A DNA stretch of 5,624 bases from the sequence record KM389307.1. One strand, 5' to 3'. Shown piece after piece: positions 1 through 5,624 of the stretch (positions are counted from its first letter, which is position 1; each line of letters opens with the position of its first letter). The translations under genes were made by a program, and so were the position numbers. A model generated the notes under the pieces. That model had not been told where the DNA came from. It saw only the letters and a list, made by a program, of their open reading frames with translations, and did no database searches. The stretch is from Escherichia phage Phi06_2974 B.

Positions 1-80
1 TCTGATGCGCCGCGCGATAAATGCGCCCATTTCCGTGAGATAAATGGCACCGCTGCGGCGTTTCAATATTTGAAAAAGAA

Positions 81-662
81 TTACAATCCTACCGCGTCAT
101 CCTTCCTCTGACTATCTACCGGAAAATACCGGTAGAGCGTCGATAACCCCACCCCGTAGATAATGGCCAGTTGCTGGCGGGTATGCCCCTTAGCCAATAG
201 CCGCCCAATCTGTTCTCGCTCATGAGGCTTTAATGCGTTGGGCCTTCCACCTATGCGTCCCTGTGCTCTGGCTGCTGCTAACCCGGCCAATGTTCGTTCG
301 ACGATCAACTCACGTTCCATTTCCGCCAGTGCCGACATCACATGGAAAAAGAAACGCCCCATGGCAGTGCTGGTATCAATACTGTCTGTTAAAGAGCGGA
401 AGTGGGCACCGCGTTCATGTAACTCTGATATCAGTGCGATCAGGTTCTTAACGCTGCGCCCCAGCCTGTCCAGTTTCCACACGACCAGGGTGTCTCCGCT
501 ATTAACGCACTTTAAAGCGCGTTTCAGACCGGGGCGGCTGGCAACTTTTCCGCTCATACGGTCTTCAAAAATGCGGTCACAGTTTGCGCTTATGAGTGCA
601 TTACGCTGTAAATCGCTGTTCTGGTCGATTGTTGATACGCGGATATAACCAATGACGGCCAT
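81..662 (-). CDS. Serine recombinase, DNA invertase of the Hin/Gin/Cin/Pin (Din) family, 193 aa
   Basis: Translation from the ATG at 662-660 begins [23 protein letters not shown]... with the catalytic-serine motif (YIRVST), the conserved [15 protein letters not shown] and [32 protein letters not shown] blocks, and a C-terminal HTH region (LSTLYRYF). A strong SD (GAGGAGGAG, plus 668-676) sits 5 nt upstream. The ORF-track start at 731 is a TTG and would read through the crossover site; I reject that extension. Confidence 0.9.
575..640. promoter_or_regulatory. Predicted Fis-dependent recombinational enhancer (sis-like) inside the 5' end of the invertase gene
   Basis: In Hin/Gin/Cin systems the enhancer lies within the first ~150 bp of the invertase coding sequence, with two Fis sites about 48 bp apart. 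Here, in coding orientation, GTATCAACAATCGAC (plus ~624-638) and AAGCGCAAACTGTGA (plus ~578-592) occupy the equivalent positions, about 46 bp apart and about 105 bp from the left crossover centre. Assignment is by positional and sequence analogy to my recollection of the hin enhancer. Confidence 0.45.
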
Positions 663-689
663 CAATTCTCCTCCTCTATGTCGCGGTGG

Positions 690-720
690 GAGGATTTTTA
701 CAGATTTCGCTATGTGTAAC
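690..720 (-). promoter_or_regulatory. Possible weak sigma70 promoter for the invertase, adjacent to the left crossover site
   Basis: On the minus strand, GTTACA (-35-like) then a 15-nt spacer then TGtAAAAAT (extended -10-like) lie upstream of the invertase SD. Match to consensus is poor and spacing suboptimal. Confidence 0.2.
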
Positions 721-724
721 CGCT

Positions 725-750
725 TTTCCAAAAACCTTGGTTTGGGAGAA
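725..750. repeat. Left crossover site (hix/gix-like, 26 bp): TTTCCAAAAACC-TT-GGTTTGGGAGAA
   Basis: Two 12-bp half-sites ending in AAACC flank a TT core at 737-738. Positions 731-751 are a perfect 21-bp inverted repeat of 2559-2579. Half-sites resemble the Din-family consensus as I recall it (hix TTATCAAAAACC / TTCTTGAAAACC). Confidence 0.8.
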
Positions 751-1089
751 GCGGCTAAAAGGAATGTAGGGACAGGGGCGAATCAGATACCTGATATGGG
801 TAGCTTCACGCTTTCTGTTTCAGGTACTGGATATCAAAAATTACCATCAGGTTTTATTCTTCAGTGGGGCTCAATCGGCGCTCCAGGCATTGCACAGGAT
901 GTAGTAACCCATTTCCCGATTGCATTTCCAAACAGATGTCTGCGTGTTTTGGTCTCACAAGACTACACACCAGATAGCGGGGCTGTTGGTTATATTGCCT
1001 GTGCAGGTTTTAGTCCCGACCCGGTTAAATTTATATCCAGAGCCAGTACTCCTGGCCTCGGCGCTTCATTTTTAGCGTTAGGCTGTTAA
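751..1089 (+). CDS. Silent alternative tail-fiber C-terminal cassette (Hv'), no start codon of its own in this orientation
   Basis: The frame is open through the left crossover site, where it encodes F-S-K-N-L-G-L-G-E (724-750), matching F-L-Q-N-L-G-L-G-E in H. The variable-specific part runs 751-1089 with TAA at 1087-1089. It is followed 21 bp later by an SD and a tfa-like gene, mirroring the active H-tfa arrangement. Confidence 0.65.
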
Positions 1090-1110
1090 TTTAGCTATAT
1101 GGAGTGAAAA

Positions 1111-1551
1111 ATGAATTACATATATTCCGCGACTACAAACTCTTTCTATCCGCTGGAGATGAAAGAGGATTACACTCAAGCTGACTCATGGCCAGATGAT
1201 GCTGTTGAAGTTGATGAGCAAGTGTATATTGAGTTTTCCGGATTACCGCCGAAAGGAAAAATCCGTATCGCTGGAGAAAATGGTTTTCCTGCATGGTCTG
1301 AAATTCCACCACCAACACATGAGGAACAGATTGCTGCAGCCGAACTGGAAAAGCAGCAACTGATTAATCAGGCCAACGATTATATGAACAGTAAACAATG
1401 GGCTGGTAAAGCGGCTATTGGTCGTCTGAAAGGTGAGGAACTGGCGCAATATAATTTGTGGCTGGATTATCTGGACGCACTGGAGCTGGTCGATACTTCC
1501 GGTGCGCCAGATATTGAATGGCCTACGCCTCCGGCAGTTCAGGCCAGATGA
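1111..1551 (+). CDS. Tail fiber assembly protein (Tfa/gpG/U-like chaperone), alternative copy paired with the silent cassette
   Basis: ATG at 1111 preceded by GGAG (1101-1104). The 146-aa product has an acidic N-terminal half and the C-terminal motif APDIEWPTPP characteristic of Tfa chaperones. Position immediately downstream of a tail-fiber C-terminal cassette. Confidence 0.8.
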   Translation: MNYIYSATTNSFYPLEMKEDYTQADSWPDDAVEVDEQVYIEFSGLPPKGKIRIAGENGFPAWSEIPPPTHEEQIAAAELEKQQLINQANDYMNSKQWAGKAAIGRLKGEELAQYNLWLDYLDALELVDTSGAPDIEWPTPPAVQAR

Positions 1552-2116
1552 CATCCGGCGCGGTGCTGGTATCTGTTGCCGTCACCGCGTCAATGTAATC
1601 CAGCACAGCGTTAAGCCGGGTTGTTTCTGCCTGCGTCAGTTTCCGCCCGGCCTGTAATTTCAGCTGAATCAGACTAATGGAAGCCATTGCTGCATCAATC
1701 AGTGACTGGCGCTGTGCTTCTGCCGCTTCTACTGCGGCACTGTGTTGTGCCTCAGTATCTGTCACCCATTTCTCACCATCCCATTTATCATATGGCGTTA
1801 ACGGTGAAAGCGTGACATAACCGTTTTTGATGGCACCGATATAATCCACTGTAACAGCTGCGCCATTTTCGATTGAGTAAACAGTCTCATTGCGATGGTC
1901 CTCTTCATGGCTCCATCCCTTACCTGTAAATACAGCCACTTTTCCCGGAATGTTTTCGCCAGGGTCAATACCAGTGGAACAGGCGGGCATACTTACACCA
2001 GTATTAATATATTCATCAGACCAGCCCGTATATTCATACGTTACTGCATCATAATAAAAACAACGCATATCACCCGGCACTGTAGCCAGTCCATTTTCAT
2101 CAAAAACAGGTTTCAT
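1523..2116 (-). CDS. Tail fiber assembly protein (Tfa/gpG-like chaperone), copy expressed with the current H
   Basis: ATG (plus 2114-2116) overlaps the H stop as TAATG. The 197-aa product ends ...TAPDVIWPELPEA with the conserved Tfa C-terminal WP motif. Immediately downstream of H, as G follows H in P2. Confidence 0.85.
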   Translation of the reverse strand: MKPVFDENGLATVPGDMRCFYYDAVTYEYTGWSDEYINTGVSMPACSTGIDPGENIPGKVAVFTGKGWSHEEDHRNETVYSIENGAAVTVDYIGAIKNGYVTLSPLTPYDKWDGEKWVTDTEAQHSAAVEAAEAQRQSLIDAAMASISLIQLKLQAGRKLTQAETTRLNAVLDYIDAVTATDTSTAPDVIWPELPEA

Positions 2117-3060
2117 TATTTAGCCCTCACCAGAAAGTTAAATGCAATGTTACGTGGTCTGACGGCAATAAAATTAACACCATCTCCTACTGAGTTACTG
2201 GTGTACTGAAATCGAGAGAAACCTGGTTGGTGTGCTGATATTCCATCGTAATCAGCAATCGCATGGCCGGACCCTTCTGGATAATTACCGCCAAATTGCG
2301 ATAAAGCTGTTGCTGCCTGCCAGCTTAATAATGCTCGCCCACTGTCCGCCCCTCGCCCATCATCCCAGATACGAATGAAATCACCGCGGGCTTCAGGTAA
2401 TACCAGCGAAGGAAACACTTTTGCCAGCACAGGGTAATCAGAGGCAGAAAATTTCGCCCCGTTGAACTTCAAAAACACCATACTGGACCAGCTATCGATT
2501 ACAGTATTTGGCATTGCAGCGGACGGCCAGAAGAACGGAACGCCAATAGCTGGAGCACCTTCTCCCAAACCAAGGTTTTGAAGAAAGGCTGCCTTATCGG
2601 GAATATCCGCACCGTTCTGGTCTTTGGCCAGTTTCTCCGCCAGCTTGTTCAGCACTGTGGTCGCAAAGTTCGGATCGTTGCCAAGGGCATCAGCCAGCTC
2701 TTTCAGCGTATCCAGTGTTTCTGGGGCTGTACCTGCAAGCGCAGCAATCGCCCTCGCCACAAATTCTGTCGTCACCAGCTTTTTGCTGTTGTCATTAGCT
2801 GCAGGCGTGGGGGCTGTTGGCGTACCCGTGAATGTTGGGCTGGCCTTCGTCGCATACTGGGTATGCGGGTCGGCCGCTGCGATGTGTTTCGCGAGATCTG
2901 AACCGCCTTTTTCAACCTGCTGTTTCAGGTATGAAGTACGGCTGGCCAGCTGTTTAGCCTGACGGTTAGAAATTCCATCAGGCCCACCCAGTACGGGGTC
3001 GGAGACCTCAATCTGGTAGATGCCGTCTTCCCACTGCGGGGTTTCGGGTAGATTTGCCAT
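2116..3060 (-). CDS. Tail fiber protein (P2 gpH-like), 314 aa: constant N-terminal part plus currently joined variable C-terminus
   Basis: ATG at 3058-3060 with GGGAG about 9 nt upstream. Contains a Pro/Thr-rich linker (PTFTGTPTAPTPAA) and the motif LDTLKELADALGNDPNFATTVLNKLA, which matches the ALGNDPNFATT block I recall in P2 H and related fibres. Sits after baseplate genes J and I and before tfa. The stop overlaps the tfa start. Confidence 0.9.
   Translation of the reverse strand: MANLPETPQWEDGIYQIEVSDPVLGGPDGISNRQAKQLASRTSYLKQQVEKGGSDLAKHIAAADPHTQYATKASPTFTGTPTAPTPAANDNSKKLVTTEFVARAIAALAGTAPETLDTLKELADALGNDPNFATTVLNKLAEKLAKDQNGADIPDKAAFLQNLGLGEGAPAIGVPFFWPSAAMPNTVIDSWSSMVFLKFNGAKFSASDYPVLAKVFPSLVLPEARGDFIRIWDDGRGADSGRALLSWQAATALSQFGGNYPEGSGHAIADYDGISAHQPGFSRFQYTSNSVGDGVNFIAVRPRNIAFNFLVRAK
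2560..2585. repeat. Right crossover site (hix/gix-like, 26 bp): TTCTCCCAAACC-AA-GGTTTTGAAGAA, inside the H coding sequence
   Basis: Inverted copy of the left site with an AA core at 2572-2573 on the plus strand. On the minus strand it encodes residues F159-E167 (FLQNLGLGE) of H. Confidence 0.8.
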
Positions 3061-3062
3061 AA

Positions 3063-3641
3063 TTAACTGCTCCCGTGGTTATAGCTGCCGTCATAGTTGA
3101 CGGTGTTGTTGTAGCGAATGGCGGCAGACTGATACTCCAGGCTCGCCAGATGGCAGCGGGCCGGAGCAAAGGCAGCGAGCGTCTGGCGTAACAGAGCCGC
3201 CTGATCGTTAGTGATGGGCTGTTGAAGGATGACGCGATAGACCGCCCAGGCTTCCGCATCGCCGTGGACAAAAAGCCCGTTATAAGTGTGTTTGCCGTCG
3301 TATCCGATCTGGCCAGTGCCTTCAATCAGATCCACTTCGCCGAAGCCGAAACGGCGGATAATTTCCCGGATTGACCACGGCGTCCCTTTGTAGCGGTGCA
3401 ACTCGATAGCGGATTTGATAAGCGTGCGACGTACATCGTCTGACTCCGCCAGTTCCCAGCCGTCACCGAACAGCGAGAACTGTTCGCCCAGCCATGGCAG
3501 CGCAGAGCTGTCGACAATATCGACGAGGTAGACCATCAACACGCTCAGGTCGATGCTGTCCAGTCTTCCGGCCAGATTGCCCAGTGCCCTGAAGCTGATA
3601 TCACCCTCAAGTGCTGGCGGGAGTTTTAGCGTCTCAGCCAT
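3063..3641 (-). CDS. Tail/baseplate protein (P2 gpI-like), 192 aa
   Basis: Sits between the J-like and H-like genes as in P2. The likely true start is the ATG at 3639-3641 (GGGAG 6 nt upstream), overlapping the J stop by 8 nt; the ORF-track start at 3647 is a TTG two codons upstream. The P2 gpI call rests on gene order and approximate size. Confidence 0.8.
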   Translation of the reverse strand: MAETLKLPPALEGDISFRALGNLAGRLDSIDLSVLMVYLVDIVDSSALPWLGEQFSLFGDGWELAESDDVRRTLIKSAIELHRYKGTPWSIREIIRRFGFGEVDLIEGTGQIGYDGKHTYNGLFVHGDAEAWAVYRVILQQPITNDQAALLRQTLAAFAPARCHLASLEYQSAAIRYNNTVNYDGSYNHGSS

Positions 3642-4737
3642 CGACAACTCCCGTGATAGTTACGTTGATGGCGGTACAGTTAGCCCACTCATTCTCTGCA
3701 AGAACAACAAGTTCAAGGCCGGGTAGTTCAACCTGGTAAACACCGCTGACAGTCAACACGGCGTTAATTTGTCCGGGGACGATATCCACACCCAGCTTGG
3801 TTCTTCGGGCTGCAACCCAGTTCTGGATGGCGTTGTTTGCCTCGTCTTTTACCGAGTTTGCATCCTGATTGCGGTAGATGGTGATCTGGGCATCTATGGT
3901 GTAATCCACCTGCACGGGCGTTTTAGCCCGGACGGTATCAGTGAGCGGCCTGACTTTTTCGTCTGAGCAGAAGCTCTCTACCAGCGTGAGGATGCTGTCG
4001 TCCGGCAGGCCGGTACTGAGCAGTGGATACAGCTCTACGGTGCCCGGAACCGGGGAGAGCACGGCGACGTCAACGATGTTGGGATGGGCCTGCATGGCAT
4101 GAAAGCGGTATGCCATACGGCTTCCGGCATTTGTGAAAGACTCCGGGGCCAGTTTGATACGTTCCCGAAGTCTGTCATTGTCTTCCTGCTCTGAACCGCC
4201 AGAGCTGGCTGCCAGATTGGTTACCTGCAGGTCGACGTTATCAATCTCATCGAGCAACTGACTGACCTGCGCAGGTTGCCAGTCGTTGCCAGCGGCTCCT
4301 GGTTCGGTACAGGTGGCCGTGGCATTGACCAGCAGCAATCCGGCTTTCAGTACCACGTCCGTATCGGTGGCAAAAATAATGCTGTCGGAAGCGCTGACAC
4401 GGGTACCTGCCGGGATCAGCACATCAATGGCCAGTTCCTCATCCACGGAGAACTGGAGCGTGGTGGTAGCAGGCTGCGCGGCAAGGCGGTACACACCAAC
4501 CAGTTCACCGAGGTAGTCAATCATCGGCTCACGGGCAAAGGCGACCAGATTCTGTTTGGCCGCTTCCTGCGCCGCCACCCTGACCAGCATTTCACGGTAT
4601 GCCCACAGGTCAATCAGCAGGCGCTCAGCCTGAGCGGGGTACAGCGTTTTGCCGGTTGCAGCTTCGTACTGTGCAATCATTTCTGCCGTGATTTTGTCGG
4701 CATCACGTTCAATAAAGTCGGGTTCTGTCAGCGCCAT
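3634..4737 (-). CDS. Baseplate assembly protein J (P2 gpJ-like), 367 aa
   Basis: Long ORF with ATG at 4735-4737. Overlaps the W stop by 10 nt and the I start by 8 nt. Position between W and I matches the P2 V-W-J-I-H-G order. Family assigned by synteny and size. Confidence 0.85.
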   Translation of the reverse strand: MALTEPDFIERDADKITAEMIAQYEAATGKTLYPAQAERLLIDLWAYREMLVRVAAQEAAKQNLVAFAREPMIDYLGELVGVYRLAAQPATTTLQFSVDEELAIDVLIPAGTRVSASDSIIFATDTDVVLKAGLLLVNATATCTEPGAAGNDWQPAQVSQLLDEIDNVDLQVTNLAASSGGSEQEDNDRLRERIKLAPESFTNAGSRMAYRFHAMQAHPNIVDVAVLSPVPGTVELYPLLSTGLPDDSILTLVESFCSDEKVRPLTDTVRAKTPVQVDYTIDAQITIYRNQDANSVKDEANNAIQNWVAARRTKLGVDIVPGQINAVLTVSGVYQVELPGLELVVLAENEWANCTAINVTITGVVDG

Positions 4738-5075
4738 AGCAGCTCCTGAGTCCGGGTCTGTCCTTCAGAGCCTTTCCAGCTCACCCGGAGCGTAAGATGT
4801 TCGCCGTCGACGGCGGGTTTAACCGACATCAGCTGGCAGCGAGGCTCCCAGCGGCGGATGGCATCGACGGATTCGCGCACCACATGCGGGATAGCCCGGT
4901 CGATGGGCCAGTCGATATAAAGATGCAGATTGCTGCCGAACTCCGGGCGATGCGGGTCGCTGCCGCGAGGAGTTCGCAGGATGATTTGAATGGCCTGCCA
5001 GATATCATCCAGCCCCCGGACGATTTCGCCGGGGGCCTGCAGTGCCGGTTGCCAGAATACTGAGGTTGTTTTCAT
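4728..5075 (-). CDS. Baseplate assembly protein W (P2 gpW / T4 gp25-like), 115 aa
   Basis: Small protein of the size and position expected for gpW. ATG at 5073-5075. Lies between V and J. Confidence 0.8.
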   Translation of the reverse strand: MKTTSVFWQPALQAPGEIVRGLDDIWQAIQIILRTPRGSDPHRPEFGSNLHLYIDWPIDRAIPHVVRESVDAIRRWEPRCQLMSVKPAVDGEHLTLRVSWKGSEGQTRTQELLWR

Positions 5076-5129: not shown

Positions 5130-5624
5130 TCAGTGGGAATGGTGATTGGAGTTCTGGCCGTCAGACAGCATGCTGCCTGTGGAGTGGGCATTGCCGTTGA
5201 TTTCAAGGTTACCGTTCACCGTGGTGGTATCAGCGGTCAAATCAATGGTTTTCCCCTTCAGGCTGATACCTACCGCAACCTCGATCACCACATGCTCGAT
5301 ACCTCCTTTGACCGTCAGCGTATGGGTCGCGCGGTTATAGCTGAACTCTGCGCCATCCGCGTATTTCGTGCCCCGGACGTTTTTGTCGCTGAACGGCGGT
5401 TTATCGACTTCTGAGTACACCGCGCCCAGAATGACACCATCCTCGCCGTTGGCATCGAGCAGCACCTCAACCTGCTCCCCCACGTCAGGGAGCCAGTAAT
5501 CCTTGTTATCCTGGGTATTGCGCTGTAGCACGTTAAGCCAGTTAGTGCGCAGGTTATCGCACTCAGGCAAACGAACGCGGGCCTGAACCTTGTCGGCATC
5601 GACGGCGCTGACCGTACCGACCTG
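5130..5624 (-). CDS. Baseplate spike protein V (P2 gpV-like); 5' end lies beyond the window edge
   Basis: The frame is open to the window edge (upstream residues QVGTVSAVDADKVQARVR continue into LPECDNLRTNWLNVLQ...). The P/DVGEQV motif, Gly-rich beta region and C-terminal HSTGSMLSDG resemble P2 gpV as I recall it. The ORF-track start at 5570 is an internal TTG. Confidence 0.85.
   Translation of the reverse strand, partial: QVGTVSAVDADKVQARVRLPECDNLRTNWLNVLQRNTQDNKDYWLPDVGEQVEVLLDANGEDGVILGAVYSEVDKPPFSDKNVRGTKYADGAEFSYNRATHTLTVKGGIEHVVIEVAVGISLKGKTIDLTADTTTVNGNLEINGNAHSTGSMLSDGQNSNHHSH

Follow-up and report, generated by a model that had tools for sequence, protein, structure and literature searches.

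A G-type inversion switch for tail fibres, driven by a Hin-subgroup invertase, in the terminal part of a probable BcepMu-like transposable prophage

The DNA analysed here, called the window below, is a stretch of 5,624 nucleotides from Escherichia phage Phi06_2974 B (sequence record KM389307.1). From its first bases inward, it carries the end of a prophage, a gene for a serine DNA invertase of the Hin subgroup (positions 81-662, minus strand), and an invertible segment of 1833 bp (739-2571) between two inverted 26-bp crossover sites. The segment holds two convergent cassettes, each made of a tail-fibre tip and an assembly chaperone, and it is followed by the constant part of the tail-fibre gene and by baseplate genes. 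The whole is a Mu-style switch of the G type that uses an invertase of the Hin subgroup and very probably belongs to a BcepMu-like transposable prophage; switches of this kind are very well known. An earlier note had described a complete G-segment-type switch at this locus, and the intact invertase, the two inverted sites, the two-cassette segment and the in-frame fusions both ways bear it out. The coordinates that it gave for the invertase (81-662) and for the crossover sites (725-750 and 2560-2585) also stand, and the sites fit the annotated boundaries in Mu and P1.

Each crossover site consists of two 12-bp half-sites flanking a 2-bp core, and the cores match as inverted repeats. The invertase-proximal site (725-750, core TT at 737-738) reads TTTCCAAAAACC TT GGTTTGGGAGAA. 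The fibre-proximal site (2560-2585, core AA at 2572-2573) reads TTCTCCCAAACC AA GGTTTTGAAGAA and lies within the codons for LQNLGLGE. The 12-nt centre, AAACCWWGGTTT, is present in exactly two copies in the window, compared with 0.06 expected from shuffled sequences, and there are no further sites. Position for position, the two sites align with the G-segment boundaries and the cixL site that are annotated in the records of Mu and P1, respectively, with both sites of Fels-2, and with a 26-mer (TTCTTGAAAACCAAGGTTTTTGATAA) that lies upstream of hin in an authentic hin-fljB locus of Salmonella and was taken to be hixL. The AA/TT core is common to the hin-proximal site and cixL, and the core is GA/TC in Mu and Fels-2. 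The best inverted repeat reported by a repeat finder was 731-756 paired with 2554-2579 (26 nt, 92% complementarity). This pair lies 6 nt inward of the true sites, as the two sites have their inner half-sites and some adjoining coding bases in common and differ in their outer half-sites. On sequence grounds, 725-750 and 2560-2585 are the functionally correct coordinates.

The tail-fibre gene in its current phase (H/S, 2116-3060, minus strand) encodes a protein of 314 amino acids that matched PHROG 3100, "tail fiber protein" (E 3.5e-116). Its constant part spans 2574-3060 and its variable part, Sv, spans 2116-2571. The expressed chaperone gene tfa (1523-2116, minus strand, 197 amino acids) matched Caudo_TAP (E 1e-27) and PHROG 105. 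On the plus strand, the segment carries the silent tail-fibre C-terminus Sv' (739-1089, 116 amino acids; Gp53-like_C, PF21882, E 3.8e-15) and the silent chaperone gene paired with it, tfa' (1111-1551, 146 amino acids; Caudo_TAP, E 7e-38; PHROG 188). By annotation the two tips are unrelated folds: Sv' belongs to Gp53-like_C and Sv had no Pfam match. The constant part together with the core is exactly 163 codons long and base 739 begins a codon of Sv'; therefore the flipped gene is in frame and would encode a fibre of 279 amino acids. The crossover site encodes the motif NLGLGE in both phases. The chaperones had been described as matched to the fibre tips, and this agrees with what is seen elsewhere, since each tip and its adjacent chaperone (Sv with tfa, Sv' with tfa') co-occur in other, unrelated phages.

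The invertase gene is an intact open reading frame of 193 amino acids with matches in Pfam, PDB and PHROG. In Pfam, residues 3-136 matched Resolvase (E 2.6e-46) and residues 139-181 matched HTH_7 (E 1.6e-14), and an alignment with known invertases showed that the catalytic serine (Ser10 in YIRVST) and the motif LDRLGRS are both kept. The PHROG match was 125, "DNA invertase" (E 1e-85); NCBIfam had no specific model for either the invertase or the fibre. The top solved structures were two structures of Mu Gin (E 5e-80 and 5e-79), and gamma-delta resolvase scored 1e-29. In global alignments of the proteins, the invertase was 83-84% identical to Hin, 68% to Gin, 66% to Fels-2 Fin, 65% to Cin, and 98% to the invertase of Klebsiella phage KP12. 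The Hin reference came from S. diarizonae, and the flagellin gene downstream of it was confirmed. These results agree with the view that the protein is an invertase of the Din family and not of the resolvase type, and also with the earlier impression that it is nearer to Hin than to Gin, Cin or Fin, the four invertases with which it was compared in this respect. Another Hin sequence was 86% identical to the invertase. Hin compared with Gin, Fin and Cin gave 63-66% identity. Hin and the phage invertase form a subgroup (83-84% at the amino-acid level) separate from Gin, Cin and Fin (63-68%).

At the nucleotide level, the invertase gene is 75% identical to hin and 66-69% identical to the other invertase genes. 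In the hin locus (positions 3893-4123 of locus L039), compared with window 560-760, the spacing from the site to the ATG is nearly the same and the spacer is partly alignable. The aligned sequences hint at a common origin of the hin module of Salmonella and the module at the phage end. Any transfer of hin would not be recent, because the nucleotide identity is only 75%; a recent transfer between hin and the phage invertase is ruled out by this value. Invertases whose protein sequence is 94-98% identical to that of the window were also found in Intestinirhabdus, Pantoea, Limnobaculum, Pseudocitrobacter, Mixta, Erwinia, Symbiopectobacterium and Buttiauxella (L019-L025, L041, L090-L092), and most of these loci also carry the identical phage end. 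The end module is found in many genera of the Enterobacterales, in at least seven of them at this level of identity, which implies that it is very broadly distributed. A 90% match in an assembly named "Vagococcus sp." looks like contamination. Many contigs encode a protein identical to the invertase of the window, and their insertion sites are in many cases independent.

A putative Fis-dependent recombinational enhancer lies within the 5' end of the invertase gene (575-638, minus strand). It contains two 15-mers of the form G-N13-C, at 624-638 and 575-589, and the tracts ATTTA and TAATG lie between them. The enhancer of Mu is also placed inside its invertase gene. The stretch that runs from the crossover site to nucleotide 90 of the invertase gene aligned nearly without gaps with the region upstream of hin and, codon for codon, with the 5' part of hin, and its conservation is high. 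In the P1 record the cin enhancer is annotated at nucleotides 19-90 of cin, which is equivalent to the enhancer region of the window. Therefore, given the conservation with hin and the annotation at the equivalent place in cin, a Fis-dependent enhancer in the 5' end of the invertase gene is likely. In a model of the invertasome, the ATTTA and TAATG tracts are the contacts of Hin helix B (PMC3798978).

We propose, with a probability of about 0.88, that the window represents the last 5.6 kb of an enterobacterial BcepMu-like, Mu-type transposable prophage, and that this prophage ends in a host-range switch of the G-segment type. Late transcription would proceed via V-W-J-I to the tail-fibre gene, the first 163 codons of which lie outside the invertible 1833-bp segment. 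The Hin-subgroup invertase encoded beside the genome end would bind both inverted 26-bp sites and, by analogy with Hin, Gin and Cin, would synapse them on a Fis-bound enhancer in its own 5' coding region. The AA/TT core would then be cut, half of the complex rotated by 180 degrees, and the strands religated. In one phase the constant part would be joined to Sv, giving the 314-aa fibre that is made together with the 197-aa chaperone; in the other phase it would be joined to Sv', and the resulting fibre of 279 amino acids, which has a Gp53-like tip, would be made together with the 146-aa chaperone. The cassette that points away from the fibre gene would have no start of its own and would be silent. 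We infer this mechanism from strong homology and from the natural occurrence of both phases. That inversion depends on Fis is presumed from the same analogy with known invertases, and the two phases would be expected to differ in receptor or host range.

Evidence that the segment inverts in nature came from related prophages. In E. coli UMEA 3052-1 (L004) and in another E. coli lysogen (L005), the flanks are 99.97-100% identical and in the same orientation, and the segment of 1845 bp between them is 98.4% identical and inverted. The breakpoints lie within the 21-bp part that the sites share, the outer half-sites have not moved, the inner sequences exchange places, and both invertase proteins are the same as that of the window. 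The reversal of a whole block with breakpoints inside the sites and unchanged outer half-sites is the signature of conservative site-specific inversion. A search with the predicted protein of the flipped phase gave eight full-length proteins of 279 amino acids with 94-95% identity, from E. coli and Enterobacter. At loci of these proteins (L014-L018), the silent cassette of the window (723-1804) is 96-97.5% identical and inverted relative to the flanks, so that Sv' is in the expressed slot and adjoins the same baseplate genes and invertase. Both orientations thus occur among natural, near-identical prophages from different isolates. The switch is real and is probably active, and the segment may also invert in the source strain.

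Four short-read contigs that bear the invertase (L009-L012) end at window positions 749-753, two of them at 751. Position 751 is the last base before the two orientations diverge, and the perfect repeat there is only 21 nt long. These contig ends suggest mixed orientations in the cultures, or two copies of the prophage per genome.

The prophage to which the switch belongs could be recognized from its end. Bases 1-2 of the window are host flank and the phage terminus begins at base 3 with TG. The terminus and terminal repeat (3-45) read 5'-TGATGCGCC..., and a GATAAATG-type motif occurs twice in them, at positions 13 and 35 counted from the end. Both prophage ends, read inward, start with TGAT, and the opposite end, seen in a relative prophage, shows this type of motif at the equivalent places. 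In about 20 loci from several genera, the same prophage end adjoins unrelated flanks. The window thus extends 2 nt beyond the phage terminus. The last gene before this terminus is that of the invertase, and the distance from it to the end of the element is 78 bp. The Mu-like backbone itself was inferred from relatives, because the window has just 2 bases of host flank. Where the full-length relatives (L001/L013 and KP12) can be aligned with the window, their identity to it is 91-99%, and none of their genes is an integrase. The closest match in a complete genome was E. coli AREA_C483 (96.7% identity over 84% of the window), where a prophage of 35.6 kb is inserted in nrfA and has the invertase and fibre module at its end. 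This prophage encodes a DDE transposase, an ExeA/MuB-like ATPase, Mor, a DUF935 protein (Mu gp29 portal), Mu F-like and G-like head proteins, and an SLT endolysin. When the prophage and one copy of CGTAAT were deleted, nrfA was restored: the sequence was 194/194 identical to intact nrfA of other E. coli genomes, and 5411 genomes matched at least 80% of the query. This indicates a 6-bp target-site duplication. The transposase of this relative shows 68-69% identity to its counterparts in BcepMu and phiE255, and 93-99% identity to those of the enterobacterial phages PhiKM (classified in Bcepmuvirus), KP12 and Phi06_2974 B.

The earlier note had called the backbone P2-like and had compared the switch with the Fin arrangement of Fels-2. 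A switch on a P2-like phage (Peduoviridae) of the Fels-2 type would account for the P2 names of the tail genes: the gene order V-W-J-I-H-tfa is present as that note stated, with V cut by the end of the window, gpI matched Tail_P2_I, and upstream in L007 we found Phage_P2_GpU, tail X and gpD (Pfam/NCBIfam). Fels-2 also truly has the order H-G-G'-H'-invertase. These names do reflect true homology of the tail genes to P2. However, BcepMu has an equal P2-like tail module, D-V-W-J-I-H, under P2 names, and so the gene order does not discriminate between the two backbones. The element end that starts with TG lies close to the invertase and next to some 20 unrelated flanks, and the relatives that were read from end to end are transposable prophages of the BcepMu-like kind. 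They encode a transposase, a MuB-like protein, Mor and Mu-type head proteins, and one of these prophages shows the 6-bp target duplication in nrfA. Fin is just 66% identical to the invertase, and in Fels-2 the invertase gene is internal and is followed by the sheath gene FI, whereas here it stands beside the genome end, as in Mu. We therefore set both the P2-like backbone and the Fels-2 analogy aside, and consider a switch on a P2-like phage extremely improbable. A BcepMu-like, Mu-type transposable prophage that carries the switch remains our preferred reading.

Several points weigh against this reading. The Mu-like backbone genes are seen in relatives, outside the window, and the full-length relatives are 91-99% identical to it. 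The nearest relatives, L007 (100%) and L004 (99.9%), are read only through the tail genes. The starts of the two candidate Fis 15-mers are 49 nt apart and the Fis sites of Hin are about 48 bp apart, so that the exact placement of the 15-mers is uncertain. Finally, the window and three Logan contigs that are identical or nearly identical to it, L007 (100% over 5622 nt), L104 and L105, all have the segment in one orientation, the only one recorded for this exact sequence.

The last point bears on whether the system could be a fossil, that is, whether the prophage or its inversion system is inactive in the source strain and the segment is frozen in its present orientation. The 314-aa fibre is found in exactly this form in three public contigs, all of which have the same orientation, and there is a precedent in SfMu, which has been discussed as possibly non-inverting owing to a 1-bp change in its site (PMC4406740). 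A synthetic query for the flipped junction was searched against complete E. coli genomes. No record spans the junction and every match begins at the crossover site, and thus these matches reflect cassette sharing and not a flipped copy of the prophage of the window. Both orientations were not seen at any one insertion site: three loci (L006, L008 and L009) have a common flank and the same orientation, and P0101 was found in only one contig. A fossil is, however, at odds with the intact reading frame of the invertase and with the occurrence of the identical protein at so many independent insertion sites. Both crossover sites are undamaged and their cores match, conservation extends to the enhancer region, near-identical prophages show both orientations, and short-read contigs break off at 749-753, two of them at 751. 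A frozen segment is thus quite improbable.

The fibre cassettes have relatives beyond this group of prophages. For each of the two variable cassettes, counterparts with 98-99% identity exist in unrelated prophages of E. coli, among them prophages of H10407 and E2348/69, and the homology begins at the crossover site or within about 10 nt of it. Cassette exchange therefore clearly happens, and the sequences indicate that fibre tips may be exchanged horizontally as modules at the NLGLGE motif. In relatives of the window prophage, other tips (Collar and Gly_rich_2) were found. According to a preprint, inversions and a "translocation" in E. coli ST131 alter homologous fibre genes of P88-, BP-4795- and phiE255-like prophages, and two of these prophages carry an invertase (10.1101/2022.05.07.487787). 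Therefore, this type of prophage and the rearrangements of its fibre genes have already been noticed.

Another arrangement at a crossover site was seen in locus L003 (9830-10660, GCA_964040895.1). Here, window 3-755 (the phage end, the invertase and the proximal site) is 100% identical. Past the site there is a truncated fibre gene of 179 amino acids that belongs to a different prophage, one with a Baseplate_J protein of 399 amino acids and Phage_Wedge1, and a second, degenerate site is only about 64 bp off. The structure of this locus suggests that a deletion, or a rearrangement between prophages, took place at the crossover sites.

Since cassettes move between prophages, the opposite orientations in the relatives might have arisen by homologous recombination or cassette replacement between co-resident prophages and not by the invertase. 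The near-identity of the cassettes to those of unrelated E. coli prophages, the non-canonical rearrangement in L003 and the translocation in the ST131 preprint (10.1101/2022.05.07.487787) would fit such an origin. It is not what L004 and L005 look like, where the entire block of 1845 bp is simply reversed, with breakpoints in the shared 21 bp of the sites and unchanged outer half-sites. We therefore regard recombination between prophages as a very improbable origin of the opposite orientations.

A wider role of the module is a rather doubtful idea. The site, the spacer of about 62 bp and the invertase gene with its enhancer, carried on a promiscuous phage end, may represent the lineage from which Salmonella hin and hixL came. 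The invertase might also work in trans at the conserved NLGLGE sites of other prophages in the same cell, whether P2-like, lambdoid or of other kinds, and in this way move fibre-tip cassettes between them or rearrange the chromosome. Hints of such action in trans come from L003 and from the ST131 preprint.

One of the closest known systems is the G segment of Mu with Gin. Both are on transposable phages, and both have the order of fibre constant part, segment (Sv-U and U'-Sv', convergent), invertase and genome end, with the same architecture of the 26-bp site. They differ in that Gin is 68% identical, the core of Mu is GA/TC and not AA/TT, the G segment is about 3 kb long compared with 1.8 kb here, and the fibre here is far shorter. 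In Mu, com and mom come after the invertase, whereas neither follows the invertase here, and the backbone of Mu is that of Muvirus and not BcepMu-like. Hin and hix of Salmonella share the closest invertase (83-84% amino acids, 75% nucleotides), a site, taken to be hixL, that aligned column by column, a near-identical spacing to the ATG, the enhancer tracts ATTTA and TAATG, and the AA/TT core. However, Hin lies within its own invertible segment and flips a promoter for fljBA, while here the invertase lies outside the segment and the flip exchanges coding cassettes of the tail fibre. Fels-2 has the same cassette logic (H-G-G'-H'-invertase) and a P2-type tail module, but Fin is 66% identical, the core is GA/TC, and Fels-2 is a true P2-like integrative phage with its invertase internal, before FI. 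The C segment and Cin of P1 share the logic of cassette swapping, the TT core in cixL, and an enhancer annotated at the equivalent place of the invertase gene; Cin is 65% identical, and P1 is a plasmid prophage with another backbone. BcepMu and phiE255 are alike in the transposase (68-69% identical to that of the relative), and the tail module of BcepMu is D-V-W-J-I-H; however, BcepMu has a single fibre gene of 785 amino acids followed by an acyltransferase, and has neither an invertase nor an invertible segment. KP12 has the same layout as the window, with an invertase that is 98% identical.

Since the mechanism is textbook knowledge, the value of this locus is chiefly corrective and contextual. 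The enterobacterial branch, unlike BcepMu itself, ends its genome with a Mu-style switch that probably sets host range, and this switch is driven by the closest phage-borne relative of Hin that was found in the searches made. The locus is also a natural example of receptor-binding modules in circulation, which is relevant to the prediction of host range.

The remaining genes of the window are all on the minus strand and encode baseplate and tail proteins. The gpI-like baseplate or tail protein (3063-3641) has 192 amino acids according to the gene calls of relatives and matched Tail_P2_I (E 4e-25). When it was taken as an open reading frame of 194 amino acids, a look-up of the exact protein gave no match; the gene callers used for the relatives start two codons later. 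It is followed by a gpJ-like baseplate protein (3634-4737, 367 amino acids; Baseplate_J, E 4e-68) and a gpW/gp25-like baseplate wedge protein (4728-5075, 115 amino acids; GPW_gp25, E 7e-11). The gpV-like baseplate spike (5130-5624; Phage_base_V, E 2e-7), which has 170 amino acids in relatives, has its N-terminus cut by the end of the window.

Within the segment, tfa and tfa' converge with an overlap of 29 bp (1523-1551), and thus there is no room for a terminator between them. A scan of 1-3200 for promoters and terminators gave fewer promoter-like matches than shuffled sequences did; neither the vicinity of the invertase nor the region between the two chaperone genes yielded anything informative. 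An 18-nt inverted repeat, I4 (1461-1478 and 1587-1604), mirrors the homologous C-termini of the chaperones (WLDYLDAL and VLDYIDAV). The inverted repeats I2-I13 (71-87% complementary) were treated as chance or, for I4, as these homologous C-termini. The silent cassette can be read as an open reading frame (652-1089, plus strand) from outside the segment, and its ATG overlaps the start of the invertase. In RefSeq relatives this frame is called a stand-alone "gp53-like domain-containing protein", which is probably an artefact of the silent phase. This matters for annotation, as the silent cassette is routinely annotated as a gene of its own.

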